DNA of 48,057 nt from Candidatus Hodarchaeota archaeon (lineage in GTDB: Archaea; Asgardarchaeota; Heimdallarchaeia; Hodarchaeales; Hodarchaeaceae): assembly GCA_016839815.1 (NCBI GenBank), contig JAEOTM010000172.1:1-48057 (forward strand). Reading direction: 5' to 3'. The position numbers were made by a program, and so were the translations under genes. Below the pieces are notes generated by a model. The model was not told the origin of the DNA. It was given only the letters and a program-made list of their open reading frames with translations, and did no database searches. Shown here one piece after another: positions 95 through 48,057 of the stretch. Positions within the stretch are counted from its first letter, which is position 1. Each line of letters opens with the position of its first letter.

Positions 95-1330
95 ATGTTT
101 CTAAGAATAATTAGCAAATCGTTATCTAAACGGAAGGGGAGGATTATCATTGCAGTGTTAGCAGTAGTCATGGGAGTTAGTATTCCCGCAGCAATGTTCA
201 CTGTTTCATTAGATATTAATCACAAAATTGGGTTAGAATTTCGAAAATTTGGTGCTAATTTACTGATCGTTCCTGAATCAGATACTATCCCAGTAGGTAT
301 TGGTGATATTAGTCTTAGTTCTGTCTCAAATCAACAATATATCAATGAAACTGATATCTACAAAATTAAAACAATTAACTGGTCAAAAAACATTCAGGGA
401 TATGCTCCTTTCCTATACGAGGTTATTTCAGCTCAAGCAAAGGGTCAAGAACAACAAGTGGTTCTTACAGGCACCTGGTTTGAGAAAAATACAACATTAC
501 TTGATGGTACGACCTTTACTACAGGTGTAAGACGAATTAACAGCTGGTGGTGGGATGTAGAAGGTGAATGGATAAACGATACTCAATCCACAGATTCTTT
601 GAGTGTTGAATGTATGGTAGGTAGAAGCGTTGCAGATAAAATGAATTTGGAAATCGGAAATAAAATCACTATTGATTTCCAAAATAAACGTCAATTAGAG
701 ATTGAGGTTAAGGGGATTATTACAACAGGTGGTACAGAAGATAATCATATATTTACTTCTTTAGAAACCGCCCAAAACTTTACTGAGCATGATAATGCCA
801 TACACACAGTACAAGTTAGTGCATTATGCACTGGTTGTCCCATTGAGGAAATCGCAGCTGAAATAGAAATTAAACTAGACAATGTTGAAGCAAAAACCAT
901 TCTGCAAATGACCAATACCGAGATGAGTGTTCTAAATACTGTTGAAACTATGATGATGCTTGTTACCTTCGTTGCTCTTCTTGCAACAATACTAGGCGTA
1001 AGTTCTACCATGACAACTTCAATTTTGGACAGAAAAACGGAAATTGGCCTGATGATGAGTCTAGGAGCAGAAAATTTGAAGATTATCTCCTTATTTTTAA
1101 CCGAATCCCTCTTGATAGGAACTATTGGAGGAAGCATTGGATTTAGTTTCGGAATAATTGGAGCTCAGTTTGTAAGTTTAATTGTGTTTAATTCACTAGT
1201 TACACCGCAAATTGTCGTTTTACCTCTTATAATTGGAATTTCAACTGTAGTTTCCTTAATTGCAGCGATAATCCCAATTAAGAGTGCACTTAGGATTGAT
1301 CCAGTGACAGTATTGAGGAATAACGGATGA
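95..1330 (+). CDS. ABC transporter permease, FtsX/MacB family (iron-uptake Fet-type cluster)
   Basis: N-terminal TM, large extracellular domain, 'DRKTEIGLMMSLGA' FtsX motif, three C-terminal TMs and an 'IDPVTVLR' end; overlaps the ATPase start by 4 nt. Confidence 0.9.
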   Translation: MFLRIISKSLSKRKGRIIIAVLAVVMGVSIPAAMFTVSLDINHKIGLEFRKFGANLLIVPESDTIPVGIGDISLSSVSNQQYINETDIYKIKTINWSKNIQGYAPFLYEVISAQAKGQEQQVVLTGTWFEKNTTLLDGTTFTTGVRRINSWWWDVEGEWINDTQSTDSLSVECMVGRSVADKMNLEIGNKITIDFQNKRQLEIEVKGIITTGGTEDNHIFTSLETAQNFTEHDNAIHTVQVSALCTGCPIEEIAAEIEIKLDNVEAKTILQMTNTEMSVLNTVETMMMLVTFVALLATILGVSSTMTTSILDRKTEIGLMMSLGAENLKIISLFLTESLLIGTIGGSIGFSFGIIGAQFVSLIVFNSLVTPQIVVLPLIIGISTVVSLIAAIIPIKSALRIDPVTVLRNNG

Positions 1331-41049: not shown

Positions 41050-43128
41050 TTGTTTAGCCAAAAGGATAGAAAATTGAAACTAATTTGCGTATTTACGACA
41101 TCTATGTTTATATTTTCGCTTATCTCAACTTCCTATGCTATAAATGTAAAAGATACCTTAAATATCCAAATCGAAGAAGAGATACTGAATCTAGACACAC
41201 GGAGTCGGAAGGCAACCTCTCCTTTTGATGAAGTTGTTGCCTATCAGTATCAGGGATTTTTAAGCATGATTGCACCTGGAACAACAACTGTGTTAATGAA
41301 TGGAATTGCTCATTCTTGGAATATCAATGTTGCAGATAATGGGTGGACGTTTACTCTTCGAGAAGGTGCAAAATTTCATGATGGATCTGTAATTAAAGCT
41401 AAAACAGTTAAATACAGCATGATAGCGAATTATATGACATACTATGGATACGACAACATGTCCCAAGCAAGAATAAAATGGGAATCTCAAGGTTATAATA
41501 TCAGCTATCCTACGAACGATCCTAATGGTGATGGTCTTGTTGTTTCATTTTCAGGGAGTTACTCCCGAAGCTTGAAGCTTGCATATGAGATCTCCGGAGC
41601 TTCAGATCTCTATATGTTGATTCCATATGGTATTCAAGGCTCGTACACCGATTCTACAGAAGTCTGTCAACAAAAACTTACTGTATTCCGAGAATCTCCA
41701 GTTTCTTGTGGTCCTTACAAGGTTATAGAACAGGCACCTCAAGATTATGTACTTTTAGAACGATTTGATGATTGGTATGGGTGGGGAGATAATTTTATTG
41801 CCGATAATGGTCAACTATACACATTTCCAACAGTTGAGAAAGCATTTAAGTTTGTTAAATTTCGATCTTTACAGGATAAAGCGATGGCAATTATTGAACT
41901 AGTCACTTCTGGCGTTGATGTCACAACAGGACGATTTAATAGTCAGAGACAACTAGATGAAATCCTTACTGAAAGAGAGGGGTTTAGTGCTTATCAAATT
42001 GAAACTCTAGGCGGTTCTTCTATATATATGAATATCCAAGGAAATTGGCCAAGCTATTTTGGTGGGATGGGGAATTTTCCACTTTCCCAGAGTTGGTTTA
42101 GAAAGGCGGTTTCGCATAGTATTAACCGTACAACTCTTGTAGAAGTTGTTTACCTTGGAATCGGGAAATCACGAACTACTATCTTTCCTAGCTGGGTGCT
42201 AGATAAGTTCTCAAATCTTGACACTACCGATTATTACAATTTTGATCAAGGATATATTGAAGCAGAAGGTCTTTTGGATTCTGCAGGTTATCCTCCCTTG
42301 GGATTTCCAGAGGAACCTGAAAATCGCTTTGGATGGGGTCCTTACGCTAATGAAACGCTGATTAATGGAGTTATGCAAACTAAGGGTAAACACTTCGTTC
42401 TTATAACCAAAAACTGTGATCAATGTATGAAAAAAGTAGTAGCAGTTATGAAAGATCTTCGCCAGATTGGAATATATGTAGATGTTGAAATATATAACTT
42501 TGGGGATTATTTTGACGTAATTTCTTCAGGTAATCCAGGTTTTACCTATAATACTACAGGTCCACAACCTGATCCTGATTTTGAAGGACCAGTTTACGAC
42601 TTCTATCTCGGAGCTTTTAACGGGAACTATGAGACTCCATGGGACTTTATTGCTTATCAATCGTTTTTTTACTGGTTGTATTACGGATATGGGGGCAACA
42701 GTTGGTTCAATATTGACTATGAAGAAGCTTACGCAAAAGCTACTGATGGTAAAGGATTAATGGAATATTTCTCACCAGGATTCATCCCTTATAATCCACC
42801 ATTGTGGTCGAATGACGATACACAATTCATTCAAGGATGTGAAGATGCAGGTTACTACATGACACATGATATGAATAGCATTCATTTAGTCTGGTACAAA
42901 GATACATATGCATATAACTCAAGATTGGAAAATTTTCTTGGTTCAAGAAGTGGATTTTATCATGCAGCATATTCGTACTGGAATACGACTGGGTTAGACT
43001 TTGGTACAACAACGGAATTAAGCACCACTCCAACTATCACCTCTTTTGCAGAAATAACCTCCATAATTGGGATAATTTGTCTAGCTCTCTACTATAAACT
43101 TGAGAAACGAGTAAAAAAGAAGTTGTAA
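41050..43128 (+). CDS. ABC peptide/oligopeptide substrate-binding protein (family 5) with C-terminal membrane anchor
   Basis: 'WTFTLREGAKFHDG', 'GPYK', 'RKAVSHSINR', 'DLRQIGI'; Thr-rich linker, TM, basic tail; GAGGTG precedes TTG 41050. Confidence 0.88.
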   Translation: MFSQKDRKLKLICVFTTSMFIFSLISTSYAINVKDTLNIQIEEEILNLDTRSRKATSPFDEVVAYQYQGFLSMIAPGTTTVLMNGIAHSWNINVADNGWTFTLREGAKFHDGSVIKAKTVKYSMIANYMTYYGYDNMSQARIKWESQGYNISYPTNDPNGDGLVVSFSGSYSRSLKLAYEISGASDLYMLIPYGIQGSYTDSTEVCQQKLTVFRESPVSCGPYKVIEQAPQDYVLLERFDDWYGWGDNFIADNGQLYTFPTVEKAFKFVKFRSLQDKAMAIIELVTSGVDVTTGRFNSQRQLDEILTEREGFSAYQIETLGGSSIYMNIQGNWPSYFGGMGNFPLSQSWFRKAVSHSINRTTLVEVVYLGIGKSRTTIFPSWVLDKFSNLDTTDYYNFDQGYIEAEGLLDSAGYPPLGFPEEPENRFGWGPYANETLINGVMQTKGKHFVLITKNCDQCMKKVVAVMKDLRQIGIYVDVEIYNFGDYFDVISSGNPGFTYNTTGPQPDPDFEGPVYDFYLGAFNGNYETPWDFIAYQSFFYWLYYGYGGNSWFNIDYEEAYAKATDGKGLMEYFSPGFIPYNPPLWSNDDTQFIQGCEDAGYYMTHDMNSIHLVWYKDTYAYNSRLENFLGSRSGFYHAAYSYWNTTGLDFGTTTELSTTPTITSFAEITSIIGIICLALYYKLEKRVKKKL

Positions 43129-43134
43129 TCTAAT

Positions 43135-43530
43135 TTATGATTCAATATCGTTTTTCTGAGCATTAATCTCATGATTAGCAGGTTTGGACAACCGCTGTTT
43201 TAATAGTATAGAATTTGCATAAGCTTCTAGGCTTTTAAAGCGTCTATCCATGGGTTGAGATTCGTCTAGAAAAAATCTAAGACTCATTTGAGAAAATTTT
43301 CCTCCTATTCTCTCAATAATGGTATTCCTTACAGTTTTAGATACACGGATTTTTGGTTGTTCTTGAATAAATACAATAAGGTCAATCCAGTTGTCTACCG
43401 CTTTTGGGCTAATATTGGCCTTGGTTAATTGTGTTTTAGCGAAAGGTTCATCCATATCATTGATTATTTCAAAAATTGCCTGTGCACGTCCAAGCATCGA
43501 ACGTGAAGTTTTGGGTTTACGATTACTCAT
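43135..43530 (-). CDS. Small putative winged-helix DNA-binding protein
   Basis: 'IFEII...FAKTQL...ISPKAVDNWIDLIVFIQEQPKIRV'; ATG at 43530 lies directly beside a palindrome. Confidence 0.6.
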   Translation of the reverse strand: MSNRKPKTSRSMLGRAQAIFEIINDMDEPFAKTQLTKANISPKAVDNWIDLIVFIQEQPKIRVSKTVRNTIIERIGGKFSQMSLRFFLDESQPMDRRFKSLEAYANSILLKQRLSKPANHEINAQKNDIES

Positions 43531-43531
43531 C

Positions 43532-43547
43532 AGTACATTAATGTACT
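43532..43547. promoter_or_regulatory. Perfect 16-bp palindrome AGTACATTAATGTACT (putative operator)
   Basis: Exact inverted repeat in the divergent intergenic region; an extra AGTACAT half-site at 43602-43608. Confidence 0.6.
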
Positions 43548-43631
43548 TTATCTGCATATAAATGTATTCATTTTTATAGGATAAAGTTATTCATTCTAAA
43601 TAGTACATATAATAGTTTTCAAGGGTTAGTT

Positions 43632-45608
43632 ATGTCACAAATAGATCAAATGCTTCAGTACTTCATCATGTTAACCTCACAGGAATTAAAGAAGTCTTTT
43701 GACCATGAGGAAGCAGAAGACATTACAATTGCATTTTCTGAACGGTTTGGGGAACTTTTCGAACAATTAAAGGAAAGATTGGATTTCAACGAAACACAAC
43801 TCTTTCATGGAATTAATCCAATCTTTGTAATAGCATTAGAAGAAGCTCTCCCTGGAAAACAAGGGCAAAAAGACGTAACAATCGTTACCAGACTAGTCCT
43901 TACCATCTACAAAACCATGCTGGAGGAAATGGTTTTATATCCTCAAAGACGAAATTTAGAGACCTCAAAGAACCCATGGGCCACTTTTGTTGAAAATACT
44001 CGTAAAGGAAACACAAAAATCTATGATAATGAATATTTTCAAGTCAAAGAAATCATCTCCACCTCAGAAGAATTTGGCTTTGACCTCAACCGGTGTATTT
44101 ATCAAGAGATCTTCAATGAGTTCGGTAGAGATGATCTAGGCCCTGTTATGTGTGAATATGACTATATACTTGCTGATAATGTCTCAAAATGGGTAGGATT
44201 CAAACGAGAGGAAACAATCCCAACAGGTTCGAACAAGTGTACTTTTAGATTTTTTAATATCAAACCCAGATTCTCCGATAATCCTCTCATTGATAATTTT
44301 CACTTTTTTCTCAATATTATTGATGAGTCTCAAGAAATGTTAAGCAAACAAGAATTGGTAAACAAGGGACTTGACGTTTCTACTGACGTTGATGAAATGA
44401 TCAAACTCTATAGATTTGTAAAAAACCATTCAGGCATTGAAACACTAATGGTAAATAAAGAACTAGCAGTTGGCAATCTAGACAGTTATAAAAAACATGA
44501 AGAATGGATATTACTATTTAACCGTAAAGTTTCCAAAGATATAAGGTCTCAAATCATCAGACATTTACCCCTTAATCTCAGTGAAGAGAAAATCAAACGA
44601 TTAATTACTGACATTCTTGAAAATCCATATGAACTTGACTCTATTAAGTGGATATGCCTCAATTATCTACAACATCACTTTTCATCACGCATCGGATTTG
44701 AAGTTGAAGGGGTTGATCAATTACAGATGAATGTAGGATTATTAGAACAATTTCGTGAGCTTTATCCCGATTATTCATTCGAGGTAAAGGTTTTACAAAA
44801 TTTAAAAGTCTCTGTTCAGATTTTTGGAAAGGGTATACCTGAATATAAATTAAAAGAACCCATTGGGCAAATTCGGAAGAAAATTATAAATAATTACCCA
44901 GATGCAGGTATTTCTTCCATTCAACCAATAATTTCTTCTGATCCTGTAGCCCAGAAATTTTTTGAGGTTTTTAAGGATACTAGCCAATCTTTCCAGCTTC
45001 GTGAGCTTGCACTTAGAATTCTTATTAGTCGAGTAGGTAGTAAACTCATACCATTTTTGGTCTCAGTTGCAGAAAATGATGAAGATGATCAGTTTTTAAG
45101 AGGGAGAGCAATAGATTCTCTTTCATGGTTCACTAGTACATTACCGCAAATATATACTTCTTTTGAGGATTTTGTCCCACTTCCCAATCCTATTAAGCGA
45201 TCAATAATTGATTTTGTCTCACGACAAGGAATAGAACAAGAATTACTTCTTTTTATTTCTAAAGATGAATCGATTGACCCTATTATCCGAATCATTGCTT
45301 TGCGAAACTTACAGACTTATCAAAGTCCACAAGTCACTACATTTTTATTAGAATTTACGAAGGAAAGGTTAAATTCCGAACGTGTCAGACAAGCATCTCT
45401 AGAAGCTCTTTCACATCACGAAGTTGACGAAAAAGGAAAAAATTTGTTATACACCATATTTACTGACCCAAAAGAAACAACCTTCATACGTATGGAAGCT
45501 TTAGAAACTCTCAAAGCTCTAAACTTTCAACCAGAGACAGAAACCACGAAAATTGAAGATTCGGATTGGATTCTTTCGCTTGGGACAAAACAGCTAATGG
45601 AGGAATAA
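43632..45608 (+). CDS. ATC-hydrolase/V4R-like domain, wHTH-like domain and HEAT-like repeats
   Basis: 'FDLNRCIY...LGPVMCEYD...REETIPTGSNKCTFRF' three-Cys pattern; repeats such as 'LRGRAIDSL', 'IRIIALRNL', 'VRQASLEAL', 'IRMEALETL'. Confidence 0.75.
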   Translation: MSQIDQMLQYFIMLTSQELKKSFDHEEAEDITIAFSERFGELFEQLKERLDFNETQLFHGINPIFVIALEEALPGKQGQKDVTIVTRLVLTIYKTMLEEMVLYPQRRNLETSKNPWATFVENTRKGNTKIYDNEYFQVKEIISTSEEFGFDLNRCIYQEIFNEFGRDDLGPVMCEYDYILADNVSKWVGFKREETIPTGSNKCTFRFFNIKPRFSDNPLIDNFHFFLNIIDESQEMLSKQELVNKGLDVSTDVDEMIKLYRFVKNHSGIETLMVNKELAVGNLDSYKKHEEWILLFNRKVSKDIRSQIIRHLPLNLSEEKIKRLITDILENPYELDSIKWICLNYLQHHFSSRIGFEVEGVDQLQMNVGLLEQFRELYPDYSFEVKVLQNLKVSVQIFGKGIPEYKLKEPIGQIRKKIINNYPDAGISSIQPIISSDPVAQKFFEVFKDTSQSFQLRELALRILISRVGSKLIPFLVSVAENDEDDQFLRGRAIDSLSWFTSTLPQIYTSFEDFVPLPNPIKRSIIDFVSRQGIEQELLLFISKDESIDPIIRIIALRNLQTYQSPQVTTFLLEFTKERLNSERVRQASLEALSHHEVDEKGKNLLYTIFTDPKETTFIRMEALETLKALNFQPETETTKIEDSDWILSLGTKQLMEE

Positions 45609-45610
45609 AC

Positions 45611-48057
45611 ATGGATTTTAACGAAGCGTTACATACAATTGAATTATATCTCGAGGAGGAGAGTTCACTCCAAAAAATTACATCACTATCTGATCTTGAT
45701 CAGATAGAAGATCCAATATTTAGTCTTCTTCTTACCCAAAAAGGGAAGTTATCTCATCTACCAGAAAAAACTATCTTTAATAAAGGAATTTCGTTTTTAG
45801 ATGAGGATTGGATCGATTTTAAATCACTGGAGGATGAAAAGAAAAGGATTAAGAAATTGCTTAATGGGGAAAATCTGGAAAAAAGCAAAGATCACCGCTC
45901 CAAAACCCATATCATTAAATCATCTGCTGAACTTCTTAAAAACGTACGAGAAGGAAGATTAAATAAATCAGGTTATTGGGAGCTCTTCAAATGTTATAAG
46001 GAGATAGATCTCGAAGACGATATTCTCGTACTCAAAAAATCTCTTGAATCATCCACAATTGAAGAGATTCTTGTAATGAAAGGGCCAATGAATACTCAAT
46101 CTACTCAAATACCGGAATATATTGAATCAGTGGGGAGTTTTTCTGAAGTTACATATCAGACTATTCCATATACTAACCCTCCAAGACAGGAGCATCTTTT
46201 ATCATATCGTGAATTACAGCAAGTTGAAAAACTCAAATGGAATTTGGATCAGATTAGTAAGTATCTAGGGTCAATTTGGCATGAAAGAACCTCATCTACG
46301 ACAATTTCACGACTAAACTTGCTTTTTGAAAGTGTTGTATTATTAGCAGAGAAAAATTGGCAGTTTAATCAGTCTCTTCATGCTGATAAAAACCAAAAAG
46401 TCATGCTAGGAATACCTAGTAACTTTATCATCGGAATATGTGGAGGATACGCTAGAGGAGAGTTTTCAAGTCATTCAGATTTAGATATGCTTCTTATTCA
46501 TGAAGGAAATGATCAGCAATTCATTCAGGTAGGTGAAACCTTACATCGAATATTCCAATTCGTTCCAAATCTGGAATTATGTAAACTAGAGAACGTTATC
46601 AATCTAAATTTTCATGAAAATGCAATACCTAATATTTTAAAGGCTTTCTTGCAAGGAGAGGAACATTTCTTAGAAGAAAGACAAAGAGTCCAACTTCAAG
46701 AGATGTTAAGCTCAATCGAAGCACTTCGGAAAACTAAAGTCTCTCTAGAAGAACAAAAAGATGGGATTAGAAAGTATTGTTGGTCTGTTTACAAATCGAT
46801 CGTTAATATGGTTCCCATTTATGAAAAACCCATAGGTAAAGGTCAATTTTTACGTGATAAGATTACTGATTCCACCAAAAATGTTCTTCCAGACATTATT
46901 CCAATCCTCGTTCGTGTTACTGAATCACTTAGAAATGAGAATAACTCTCTTGGAGAGAATCTTAGAATTTGTCAACCTTTTCTTTATGATTCAATATTCA
47001 AGACACATTCAGTTATCACAGCATTACAAGATCTGAGTACCATTTTGGCTGTTCTTACAGGAACTACGTTTACTTTTTCAACCATTGACCGATTTCAAAC
47101 AGCTATAAACCGAAATCTCATATCTGAAGAACAGGGTGAGAAACTTATTCAAGGATATGCATGTTTTGCAGAAATGAAATATAATCTGACAAAAAGGATG
47201 CCAATAACAGCTGTCGAGTCACTTAATGATGAATTGAAGGATTTAATCCAAGAGATATATACTCATATTCTACAGAGTTTAGGCCCAAGTGAAAGGATTG
47301 AGAAACCAACCACTGTCGCTTATCCACTCCTAGTTTTTTCTGACCTACACTGGGGATTAAATAATAAAATGGTTAAAGAAGGACTAGCTGAAATCAAAAG
47401 GGTTTGTGAAACACATCAAGTACGGTCAATTGTTATTGCTGGAGATATATTCAATATCGATCGTGTAAGTGAGCTTCTAGAATCAGATAATGAAGGTATT
47501 GCACTTCTTAATGAGCTCTCTAATATCCAAGATACTCTTGGAGATCAACGAATTCATATTATGTCCGGTAATCACGATCCATATTCTTTCTATACCCAAT
47601 TTCGCTTCAAATTAAAACGAAATCTTGATATCCACTTTATTGGAGACAATTACAAAGATCACCATATTTGGATTGAACATGGTGATCAGGACTTTTGGGT
47701 TAATTATACTCCACCCCTTGAAGATTATGTTTCAACATACAGAGCAAAGAAGAATCTATCGTCACAGGCAATTATTGTAGGACACAATCACCGAATCCAT
47801 GAGGAAATTGAGTCAAGATTTTATGCAAACGGCTCAATTGGAAAATATTTTTCTGCTACATTAGTAACAGAGAATTCAGTTGAACTATTAAAGTTACCTA
47901 TACAACATCACATTGATTTAGAGAATATATATGAAAAATATCAAGAAATGACTAATTCAGAAAATTTATTAGATGAATATATTCAGTCTAACTTCAAGCT
48001 GATTGAATGGAATAACTTTTGTTCAGAAATTCAATTTAACAAATCGGAAAAAGAAAC
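45611..48057 (+). CDS. Partial ORF (>815 aa, runs off the window): GlnD/GlnE-type nucleotidyltransferase, helical substrate-binding domain, calcineurin-like metallophosphoesterase
   Basis: Manual translation from ATG 45611 finds no stop. 'GGYARGEFSSHSDLD' at 46442, 'STIDRF...LISEEQGEKLIQGY' near 47080, 'DLH' at 47342, 'AGD', 'GNHD' at 47567, 'EHGD', 'GHNH' at 47780. Confidence 0.85.
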   Translation, partial: MDFNEALHTIELYLEEESSLQKITSLSDLDQIEDPIFSLLLTQKGKLSHLPEKTIFNKGISFLDEDWIDFKSLEDEKKRIKKLLNGENLEKSKDHRSKTHIIKSSAELLKNVREGRLNKSGYWELFKCYKEIDLEDDILVLKKSLESSTIEEILVMKGPMNTQSTQIPEYIESVGSFSEVTYQTIPYTNPPRQEHLLSYRELQQVEKLKWNLDQISKYLGSIWHERTSSTTISRLNLLFESVVLLAEKNWQFNQSLHADKNQKVMLGIPSNFIIGICGGYARGEFSSHSDLDMLLIHEGNDQQFIQVGETLHRIFQFVPNLELCKLENVINLNFHENAIPNILKAFLQGEEHFLEERQRVQLQEMLSSIEALRKTKVSLEEQKDGIRKYCWSVYKSIVNMVPIYEKPIGKGQFLRDKITDSTKNVLPDIIPILVRVTESLRNENNSLGENLRICQPFLYDSIFKTHSVITALQDLSTILAVLTGTTFTFSTIDRFQTAINRNLISEEQGEKLIQGYACFAEMKYNLTKRMPITAVESLNDELKDLIQEIYTHILQSLGPSERIEKPTTVAYPLLVFSDLHWGLNNKMVKEGLAEIKRVCETHQVRSIVIAGDIFNIDRVSELLESDNEGIALLNELSNIQDTLGDQRIHIMSGNHDPYSFYTQFRFKLKRNLDIHFIGDNYKDHHIWIEHGDQDFWVNYTPPLEDYVSTYRAKKNLSSQAIIVGHNHRIHEEIESRFYANGSIGKYFSATLVTENSVELLKLPIQHHIDLENIYEKYQEMTNSENLLDEYIQSNFKLIEWNNFCSEIQFNKSEKE

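Follow-up and report, generated by a model that had tools for sequence, protein, structure and literature searches.

The window analyzed here is a 48,057-nucleotide stretch that makes up the complete contig C151 of assembly G000, a 206-contig, 4.24-Mb metagenome-assembled genome (MAG) of a Candidatus Hodarchaeota archaeon (89.5% complete, 7.8% contamination). Its 3' end carries three genes that we treat as one cassette: a small gene on the minus strand; gene 1, which runs divergently from it and encodes a protein with a three-cysteine domain and HEAT repeats; and gene 2, which encodes a nucleotidyltransferase (NTase) fused to a phosphoesterase. Gene 2 is open at the contig end. The first bases of contig C106 are the last 127 bases of the window, an overlap shared with no other contig, and positions 1-485 of C106 complete gene 2 to 934 residues, the 119 further residues being in frame and matching the C-terminal consensus of the family. 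Retrieval of this downstream contig added a predicted CBS pair, a candidate second sensor, to what the initial annotation of the window had described.

That annotation had placed a V4R/ATC-hydrolase-like, winged helix-turn-helix (wHTH)-like and HEAT protein 2 nt from an NTase-phosphoesterase gene, with both genes divergent from a small regulator and a palindrome. The layout holds: the gene 1 stop codon (TAA, 45606-45608) and the gene 2 ATG (45611) are 2 nt apart, and the small gene and the palindrome lie on the other side of gene 1 (Table 1) in an arrangement that is conserved between loci. Taken with the domain content of the proteins, it led us to suspect, with some reserve, that the cassette encodes a ligand-gated enzyme that both adds and removes a nucleotidyl group.

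Table 1. Features of the cassette, with positions in the window (open reading frame, ORF; VIA denotes structural comparison).
Feature	Position	Strand	Basis
Small 131-residue protein, wHTH-like putative autoregulator	43135..43530	-	ORF and homolog starts
Perfect 16-bp palindrome AGTACATTAATGTACT, putative operator	43532..43547		1 nt from small-gene start codon
Invariant 13-mer ATATAAATGTATT	43556..43568		identical in all five aligned intergenic regions
Extra AGTACAT half-site	43602..43608		23 nt upstream of gene 1 start
Gene 1, 658-residue candidate sensor/scaffold subunit	43632..45608	+	Pfam, AlphaFold model, homologs
ATC_hydrolase/MetOD1-type domain, gene 1 residues 1-210	43632..44261	+	Pfam; three invariant Cys
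wHTH-like domain, gene 1 residues 218-295	44283..44516	+	model and homology to small protein
Beta-alpha-beta-beta-alpha-beta ferredoxin-like (ACT-like topology) domain, gene 1 residues 351-433	44682..44930	+	model
HEAT/alphaRep-like solenoid, gene 1 residues 438-658, predicted gene 2 docking surface	44943..45605	+	Pfam, VIA, complex model
GGAGG Shine-Dalgarno-like site within gene 1 end, 7 nt before gene 2 ATG	45599..45603	+	read directly
Gene 2, candidate catalytic subunit, 815 residues in window	45611..48057, open at contig end	+	ORF
N-terminal alpha/beta domain, gene 2 residues 1-200	45611..46210	+	model, moderate confidence
GlnD/GlnE-like NTase core and HEPN-like helical 'substrate-binding' domain, gene 2 residues 205-565	46223..47305	+	hhalign, NCBIfam, VIA
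Putative catalytic NTase motif GGYARGE-x4-SDLD (G278-D292)	46442..46486	+	invariance in family
Calcineurin-like metallophosphoesterase domain, gene 2 residues 572-767	47324..47911	+	Metallophos_2, VIA, motifs
Predicted CBS pair, start	47954..48057, remainder on C106 128-485	+	homolog model, weak Pfam

Domain content of the three genes

Gene 2 has 46 homologs at 49-65% identity, from the same clade as the 44 homologs of gene 1 (52-68% identity), all of which come from Hodarchaeales/Heimdall-type Asgard MAGs. A profile search with gene 2 through 1.84 billion representative proteins returned 15 relatives at E <= 1e-3, all from this group. Its structure was read on a full-length homolog, P0006, which is 64% identical and was modeled with a mean predicted local distance difference test (pLDDT) of 68.6. 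The first 200 residues matched no family in Pfam or in scans of the homologs.

The central part of gene 2 resembles the NTases of GlnD and GlnE. The NTase profile A9 was aligned by hhalign to residues 89-175 of E. coli GlnD (probability 89.6%, E 1.9e-6, 35% identity), and NTP_transf_2 and four GlnD NCBIfam models matched weakly at residues 266-307. The GlnD models reached E-values of 5.5e-5 and 1e-4 with whole-protein scores far below their cut-offs (21.5 bits vs 631 for NF002895, 20.7 vs 519.4 for TIGR01693). In VIA comparisons, the match for residues 201-570 of P0006 was 3k7d, the adenylylation domain of GlnE (Z 10.6 over 275 residues), and the helical part at 444-570 matched HEPN/NT-substrate-binding bundles (Z 10.2-10.4; 1wwp, Z 10.4). 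At the level of sequence, hhalign of the NTase profile with GlnE gave no meaningful alignment (E 0.017, probability 2.7%). DUF294_C was found weakly at residues 469-524 and in 26 of the 37 family members (best E 0.0058; 14 bits vs a gathering score of 22.5 in P0004), and DUF294 in three of the 37 (best E 8.5e-4), all below the gathering thresholds of PF03445 and PF10335. DNA_pol_B_palm was also weakly matched in 14 of 37 members, and the sole match of the NTase region among PDB sequences was Pol beta, at the generic core motif (E 0.3). No cyclase-type or CD-NTase family was matched in Pfam, in the homolog scans or in PADLOC. Within the motif listed in Table 1, G278, G279, R282, E284, S289, D290, L291 and D292 are invariant in 38 sequences and in a split variant of the cassette.

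The phosphoesterase that follows was recognized by Metallophos_2 at residues 573-743 (E 2.8e-6, 27.8 bits vs a cut-off of 27). Its DxH, GD, GNH[DE], H and GHxH motifs are D578-x-H580, G611-D612, G653-N-H-D656, H690 and G724-H725-x-H727. D578, H580, G611, D612, G653, N654, H655, D656, H690, G724 and H725 are invariant in the same 38 sequences and H727 is nearly so. Both catalytic centers of gene 2 are under selection, since the motifs of each are invariant across these sequences. The pairing of an NTase with a phosphoesterase in one protein was read correctly at the outset. By structure, residues 586-780 of P0006 were closest to LpxH (5b49; Z 16.4, root-mean-square deviation (rmsd) 3.2 over 174 residues), followed by the MJ0936 phosphodiesterase (1s3l, Z 14.0), SbcD/Mre11 (about Z 13.5; range 12.9-13.6) and the Pnkp phosphatase (Z 9.9). 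Sequence matches included the SbcD subfamily (E 2.4e-7) and PdeM (E 1.1e-3). The domain is nearest to diesterases and pyrophosphatases such as LpxH and MJ0936, not to Ser/Thr phosphatases.

The C-terminus of gene 2 is predicted to be a CBS pair, as modeled in P0006. Residues 795-916 of that homolog aligned over about 120 residues with CBS pairs (3lv9, Z 10.8; 2p9m, Z 10.8; 2ef7, Z 10.6) and matched the MtCorB CBS pair with Mg-ATP (Z 10.2). The Pfam CBS match on the C106 piece was sub-threshold (E 0.0064, 17.2 vs 24), and seven of 37 family members were matched.

Gene 1 was modeled with AlphaFold from a 36-sequence alignment (mean pLDDT 84.3). Searches with the whole model in Foldseek and VIA gave match lists filled by HEAT/ARM repeats. 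At the N-terminus, ATC_hydrolase (PF14196) was matched at residues 105-207 (E 2.3e-14, 54.8 bits vs a cut-off of 28.1) and in all 36 family members, and MetOD1 was matched in 33 of the 36 over the Cys-bearing half of the same domain, which was modeled with a helical part and a beta-beta-alpha-alpha-beta-beta part. C155, C174 and C203 are invariant in the 36 sequences and in a free-standing paralog on C106. MetOD1, V4R, HNOB and ATC hydrolase are related, and the three-Cys cluster is also found in the phenol sensors PoxR and MopR (Galperin et al. 2018, PMC5847659). At the level of the family, assignment of this domain as V4R/ATC-hydrolase-like is sound.

The paralog on C106 (locus L003) is a 168-residue DUF6125/ATC_hydrolase protein, encoded at 563-1069 (+) 77 nt after gene 2; it keeps the three Cys of gene 1, and this neighbor is not conserved in other loci. 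Free-standing homologs of gene 1 residues 4-209, of 210-330 residues and 35-44% identity, also occur in four other families of the class (e.g., G073:C99, G078:C151 and G001:C126), in unrelated contexts and with no NTase gene. The surroundings of three such loci in other families (L012, L013 and L015) had no common theme.

The model of gene 1 residues 218-282 has an H-H-H-beta-beta pattern (H218-232, H239-244, H253-263, E269-274, E277-282), which together with homology to the small protein suggests a wHTH-like domain. A Pfam match named 'wHTH-Calcineurin_assc' in two of the 36 homologs (E 3.6e-4) could not be placed on any sequence in two further scans and was not used. A helical linker connects the wHTH-like unit to the ferredoxin-like plait, which in VIA resembled the aIF2-alpha C-domain 1yz7 (Z 9.6, rmsd 2.1 over 77 residues) and a designed alpha/beta plait (Z 10.1); as modeled, this is a generic fold, and no function follows from the match. 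The C-terminal solenoid was matched by HEAT_2 at residues 549-627 (E 3.7e-9) and by alphaRep 6fsq (Z 14.5, rmsd 2.9 over 172 residues). The V4R/ATC-hydrolase-like and HEAT parts proposed for gene 1 are borne out by Pfam, by the 36-member family and by the model, and the wHTH-like part is suggested by its modeled pattern and its paralogy with the small protein.

For the small gene, the ORF at 43135-43557 (-) would encode 140 residues if the upstream ATG at 43557 were used; the 16 homologs, which are restricted to the clade and all start near MSN/MS..R, favor the second ATG at 43530 and a protein of 131 residues. The family has no Pfam family and no PDB sequence match, and profile searches of PDB sequences with gene 1, gene 2, the gene 1 N-domain and the small protein returned nothing usable. 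The small protein was matched by BLASTP to residues 211-307 of the gene-1-like protein of locus L011 (E 3e-12) and by hhalign to residues 219-309 of the gene 1 protein P0001 (E 5e-4, probability 31%), and the L011 small protein matched the same position in an ATC_hydrolase-EutA fusion (E 1e-10). Direct BLASTP against P0001 was not significant (E 0.14), and the paralogy emerged through hhalign and the less diverged L011 protein. Judged from these alignments, the small protein is a paralog of the gene 1 wHTH-like domain. Another copy of the small gene, which looks intact (57% amino acid identity), lies at G000:C51 2506-2820 (-), where it is cut by the contig end; it adjoins a Fur-family regulator and a catalase and could be contamination of the bin.

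The intergenic region contains candidate regulatory sites. The palindrome AGTACATTAATGTACT occurs once in the 4.24-Mb assembly. From base composition, about 0.8 occurrences of such a 14-mer core are expected, so the weight of the palindrome rests on its conserved position in four other loci: L004, L005, L008 and L009 have near-palindromes of the form (A/G)(G/A)TACA-N4-(T/C)(G/A)TA(T/C)(C/T) at the same place, and the L005 copy is also perfect. The 13-mer ATATAAATGTATT, which also occurs once in the genome, is unchanged across the five intergenic regions although the flanking proteins are just 29-70% identical; it is probably the TATA box of the small gene on the minus strand together with a further ATGTA half-site. 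The AGTACAT 7-mer occurs 263 times in the genome and by itself counts for little. The conserved near-palindrome and ATATAAATGTATT, both unique in the genome, fit a dedicated autoregulator that would bind in this region.

Co-occurrence of the genes and their predicted contact

The three genes co-occur strictly and side by side. In a survey of 83 genomes of the class, which included 21 congeneric ones, gene 2 was present in 11 of the 21 congeners and in one genome of another family. Full-length gene 1 was present in the same 11 congeners, the remaining 10 had neither gene, and the small gene adjoined gene 1 in all 11 cassette-bearing congeners. In L004, L005, L006, L008, L009 and L011, genes 1 and 2 are separated by 0-5 nt or have a short overlap. 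The small gene is divergent and upstream of gene 1 wherever that flank is present, and the surrounding genes, which are ordinary metabolic genes, vary between the six loci that were fetched. The records that contain homologs of the three proteins are nearly all named Hodarchaeales, Hodarchaeota, Heimdallarchaeota or Kariarchaeaceae, and the homologs share contigs. Because several high-quality congeners (94-99% complete) have no cassette, we regard it as accessory.

Two variants bear on which parts belong together. In genome G038, the one cassette-bearing genome outside the genus, the cassette is split into three overlapping genes, which encode a 288-residue HEAT-only protein (E 2e-10 to P0001 438-627), a 533-residue NTase (30% identity) and a 376-residue phosphoesterase-CBS protein (40% identity). 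The solenoid is the only part of gene 1 retained there, which shows that the HEAT, NTase and phosphoesterase-CBS parts are the conserved core and that the three-Cys/wHTH part is an addition. A divergent relative (P0094) has an expanded cassette at L011 431-8877, where the small gene is followed in order by a 768-residue ATC_hydrolase-wHTH-EutA fusion (EutA, E 2e-130), an Amidohydro_2 gene, a gene-1-like gene (576 residues) and a gene-2-like gene (958 residues). MeaB-type genes, encoding B12-chaperone GTPases, stand beside the cassette at L008 9486-10439 and L009 3222-3512; together with EutA in L011 they hint at a corrinoid-related theme, which could be chance. In three other genomes, remnants of the small gene, decayed and in inverted orientation, lie shortly after gene 2 (L009 8850-8963 (+), G054:C17 16898-17107 and G049:C32 6278-6415), and the cassette may once have been bracketed by inverted small-gene copies.

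To model the contact between the two large proteins, gene 2 residues 1-770 and the HEAT domain (gene 1 residues 438-658) were used as input, each with its family alignment. The complex scored 0.79, compared with 0.25 for the best of three controls, and passed a mark that is reached by 58 of 80 solved complexes and by 2 of 110 mismatched pairs. Between runs the contacts agreed to at least 66%, and the pLDDT of the partner was at least 83. Sequence profile searches of the PDB with genes 1 and 2 found no similar solved complex, so the result is unlikely to reflect a memorized structure. In the predicted contact, the concave face of the solenoid holds an extended segment of gene 2 (179-201, including Y199 and R200). 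The solenoid also meets the helix before the NTase core (221-237, with the invariant YL-SIW-E motif) and the invariant P-I-G-K-G loop (407-413), and many of the key contact residues are invariant. Predicted contacts include Y199/R200 and I222/E225 in gene 2 and F618/R620/E622 and D645/W646 in gene 1. The model is support for, not proof of, binding of the HEAT domain to the NTase module. With docking predicted to be stable, the HEAT protein resembles a regulatory subunit more than a substrate that is bound only transiently.

A candidate nucleotidyl switch and its alternatives

The architecture of gene 2 repeats the logic of GlnD, in which a transferase, a hydrolase and a ligand sensor are combined, and for this reason we favor, at somewhat less than an even chance, a ligand-gated enzyme of two subunits that both attaches a nucleotidyl group and takes it off again and is analogous to GlnD but not a member of its family. 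The self-contained three-gene regulatory cassette of Hodarchaeales-type Asgard archaea would then be built around gene 2 as the bifunctional enzyme. Its GlnD-like NTase would attach a nucleotidyl group (nucleoside monophosphate, NMP), most likely to a protein side chain, and the fused binuclear metallophosphoesterase would hydrolyze the NMP phosphodiester again, with the C-terminal CBS pair setting the balance of writing and erasing in response to a ligand of the adenine-nucleotide type. Gene 1 would be the regulatory subunit. Its HEAT solenoid would dock on the NTase module at the linker and the N-terminal helix, and a second input would come from its V4R/ATC-hydrolase-type domain, a sensor of a ligand or of redox state whose three Cys probably bind Zn. 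The small protein, as a free-standing copy of the gene 1 wHTH-like domain, would probably bind the palindrome and repress the divergent promoters, and as a candidate output or target it calls for the fewest further assumptions. The circuit of sensing and reversible nucleotidylation suggested earlier for this locus thus stands in its linkage and anatomy and gains a predicted docking of the HEAT domain on the NTase module, and the nucleotidylation itself stays a tentative proposal.

The likeness to GlnD consists of a Pol-beta-type NTase with GGY(G/A)RGE...SD(L/V)D, a HEPN-like helical domain, a metal-dependent phosphohydrolase and a C-terminal ligand sensor in one polypeptide. The parts themselves differ, however. 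The eraser is a calcineurin-like metallophosphoesterase here and an HD domain in GlnD, the sensor is a CBS pair here and two ACT domains in GlnD, and the cassette adds a 200-residue N-domain and a separate sensor/HEAT subunit. Searches of gene 2 in Pfam and NCBIfam gave no HD or ACT match, the Metallophos domain and the CBS pair taking those positions. The gene 2 family is archaeal and confined to one clade. Without an HD or ACT domain, with scores far below the GlnD cut-offs and with no PII gene found, gene 2 is not a GlnD.

GlnE, a reversible protein AMPylation enzyme, provides the best structural match for the NTase and helical region (the C-terminal adenylylation domain, 3k7d). It has two tandem NTase domains (AT-N and AT-C) and removes the group by phosphorolysis, whereas gene 2 combines one NTase, with a single GG..R.E...SDLD motif, and a hydrolase, and the similarity in sequence is negligible. 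The putative NTases of the DUF294/DUF294_C type resemble gene 2 in having a GlnD-like NTase, the same helical domain and CBS domains. In DUF294 proteins, CBS and cNMP domains precede the NTase and there is no phosphoesterase; gene 2 matches these families below their gathering scores, and DUF294 is itself uncharacterized. Gene 1 keeps the three-Cys cluster of the V4R/MetOD1/ATC-hydrolase sensors, such as PoxR, MopR and the output domains of archaeal response regulators, but its domain is fused to wHTH-like, ferredoxin-like and HEAT parts and is coupled to an enzyme, not to a sigma54 activator or a receiver domain.

Several observations weigh against the proposed switch. The NTase core was poorly modeled (pLDDT <50 at residues 273-344 of P0006), with no readable active-site geometry, and similarity to GlnD spans just about 80 residues, at 21.5 bits where the family cut-off is 631. 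Because DNA_pol_B_palm and Pol beta in the PDB match at similarly weak levels, a nucleic acid or small-molecule substrate is compatible with the data. SbcD, which is among the best sequence matches of the phosphoesterase, is a nuclease, and we know of no metallophosphoesterase that acts as a de-nucleotidylylase. The basic wing present in the small protein has been lost from the gene 1 wHTH-like domain. The interface residues of the complex model were, as a set, not significantly more conserved than the remaining protein (permutation p 0.35 and 0.12). Finally, a search for PII (PF00543) in G000, an assembly that is 89.5% complete, found none, and the same search matched 13 of 14 control genomes; PII is therefore unlikely as the target, within the limits of an incomplete genome.

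These points leave room for a small-molecule enzyme, which we consider unlikely. The NTase would make a nucleotide second messenger or nucleotidylylate a metabolite, and the LpxH/MJ0936-like phosphoesterase would degrade the product. Production would be under the control of the CBS pair and the three-Cys domain, with the small wHTH protein or the gene 1 wHTH-like domain as the receptor. Such a role is consistent with the proteins that the phosphoesterase matches best by structure, the UDP-sugar pyrophosphatase LpxH (Z 16.4) and the phosphodiesterase MJ0936 (Z 14.0). Small molecules are also the substrates of KNTase-type NTases, which have the same helical domain (clan description, PMC3710099). 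The ATC_hydrolase family is likewise named after a small-molecule hydrolase, and the ATC_hydrolase-wHTH-EutA fusion and Amidohydro_2 gene of the L011 cassette hint at metabolism. The NTase is, however, closest in both sequence and fold to GlnD and GlnE, whose characterized members modify proteins, no cyclase-type or CD-NTase family was matched, and no receptor domain for a known messenger was recognized.

Processing of RNA or DNA ends, for repair or conflict, appears quite unlikely. It would pair a Pol-beta-type terminal transferase with an Mre11/SbcD-like nuclease or a 2',3'-cyclic phosphodiesterase, guided by the wHTH-like domains. PolX with PHP, the bacterial CCA-adding enzyme with an HD domain and Pnkp are the analogous cases, in all of which a Pol-beta-superfamily or related transferase is joined to a metal-dependent phosphoesterase. 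The nuclease side of the phosphoesterase matches (SbcD subfamily and PdeM by sequence; Mre11/SbcD at Z 12.9-13.6 and Pnkp at Z 9.9 by structure) would agree with this, but the domain is just about 195 residues long and has no Mre11 capping domain. Similarly, the weak DNA_pol_B_palm matches (14 of 37) and Pol beta as the sole PDB match for the core motif (E 0.3) are offset by the domain after the NTase core, a bundle of the HEPN/KNTase_C type as in GlnE (Z 10.6 and 10.4), not polymerase fingers or thumb; gene 2 also has no tRNA-binding body. The patchy distribution in the genus and the decayed inverted small-gene copies in three genomes suggest an accessory, once-mobile unit. Yet there are no nuclease, helicase or ligase partners, and it would be unusual for a repair enzyme to have a CBS pair and a three-Cys sensor, which, like the HEAT partner, have no counterpart in PolX, CCA enzymes or Pnkp. 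PADLOC gave no matches for gene 1 and the small protein, and for gene 2 only the generic NTase motif (E 0.0012-0.015; PDC-S09 and PDC-M70A), none significant. With no significant PADLOC match and ordinary metabolic neighbors, the defense role entertained in the initial annotation gained no support.

The ATC_hydrolase-like domain could also be a true enzyme in a catabolic or cofactor pathway (thiazoline- or hydantoin-like ring opening, corrinoid or tetrapyrrole handling), with the NTase activating an intermediate or cofactor and the small protein repressing the pathway. This is very unlikely, although the family takes its name from a C-S ring hydrolase, the L011 cassette contains Amidohydro_2 and EutA, a reactivase-type ATPase (E 2e-130), in L008 and L009 the cassette has MeaB-like genes next to it, in this genome gene 2 is followed by another ATC_hydrolase/DUF6125 gene and HNOB/V4R relatives are linked to tetrapyrroles (in part PMC5847659): the split variant of G038 has no ATC_hydrolase domain and yet keeps HEAT, NTase and phosphoesterase-CBS, no pathway gene is common to the loci, and relatives of the MetOD1 type are output or sensor domains of response regulators (PMC5847659).

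Among these possibilities, the ligand-gated enzyme for adding and removing a nucleotidyl group is the one we retain, with the caution expressed above. Most known cases of reversible protein nucleotidylylation (GlnD, GlnE, Fic, DrrA/SidD, SelO) come from bacteria and eukaryotes. According to a 2015 review, modification of PII had not been reported from any archaeon (PMC4285133). Our literature search returned no description of the cassette, of a link between Hodarchaeales and nucleotidyltransferases or of GlnD combined with a metallophosphoesterase, and the public names of the cassette proteins are generic. The cassette may take its place among bifunctional nucleotidyl-transfer and -removal enzymes with allosteric sensors. 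If so, both its eraser chemistry and its sensor design, spread over two subunits, would be new, and the system would belong to an archaeal lineage often placed closest to eukaryotes. Hardly any relatives of the three protein families can be detected (15 for gene 2 among 1.84 billion proteins).

A bolder version, which we think improbable, is that the cassette is the first archaeal protein-nucleotidylylation switch, an Asgard-specific GlnD analog in which a binuclear metallophosphoesterase, and not an HD domain, erases, a HEAT-anchored three-Cys sensor and the CBS pair decide jointly, and the target is its own wHTH-like repressor or the paralogous domain of gene 1. Through such a switch, a metabolic or redox signal would act directly on transcription. 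The significance of the cassette is limited in that it is accessory (present in roughly half of the genomes of the genus), lacks a counterpart in eukaryotes and has a chemistry that we infer. For archaeal sensor domains of the ATC-hydrolase/MetOD1/V4R type, it offers a defined context, an enzyme partner and an operator with which they can be studied.

Neighboring genes and duplicated sequences

The genes 5' of the cassette, at 38152-43128, encode an M32 carboxypeptidase, a D-serine-dehydratase-like/Ala_racemase_N protein and a family-5 peptide-binding protein. Their theme of amino acid and peptide uptake is not common to the other cassette loci. On the 3' side, an FtsX-type permease follows the cassette of the split variant (L010 8740-12825, with an ABC ATPase), and another is encoded at G000:C106 2893-4053, 2.4 kb downstream of the cassette studied here, possibly by coincidence.

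Part of the 5' flank has a counterpart elsewhere in the assembly. G000:C29 1587-2305 is a 67%-identical paralog of the 3' part of the SBP_bac_5 gene of the window (42038-42753), and after it, at 2731-2852, lies a decayed 3' remnant of the small gene (80% amino acid identity over residues 79-118). Together, the two segments look like a relic of a second copy of this junction.

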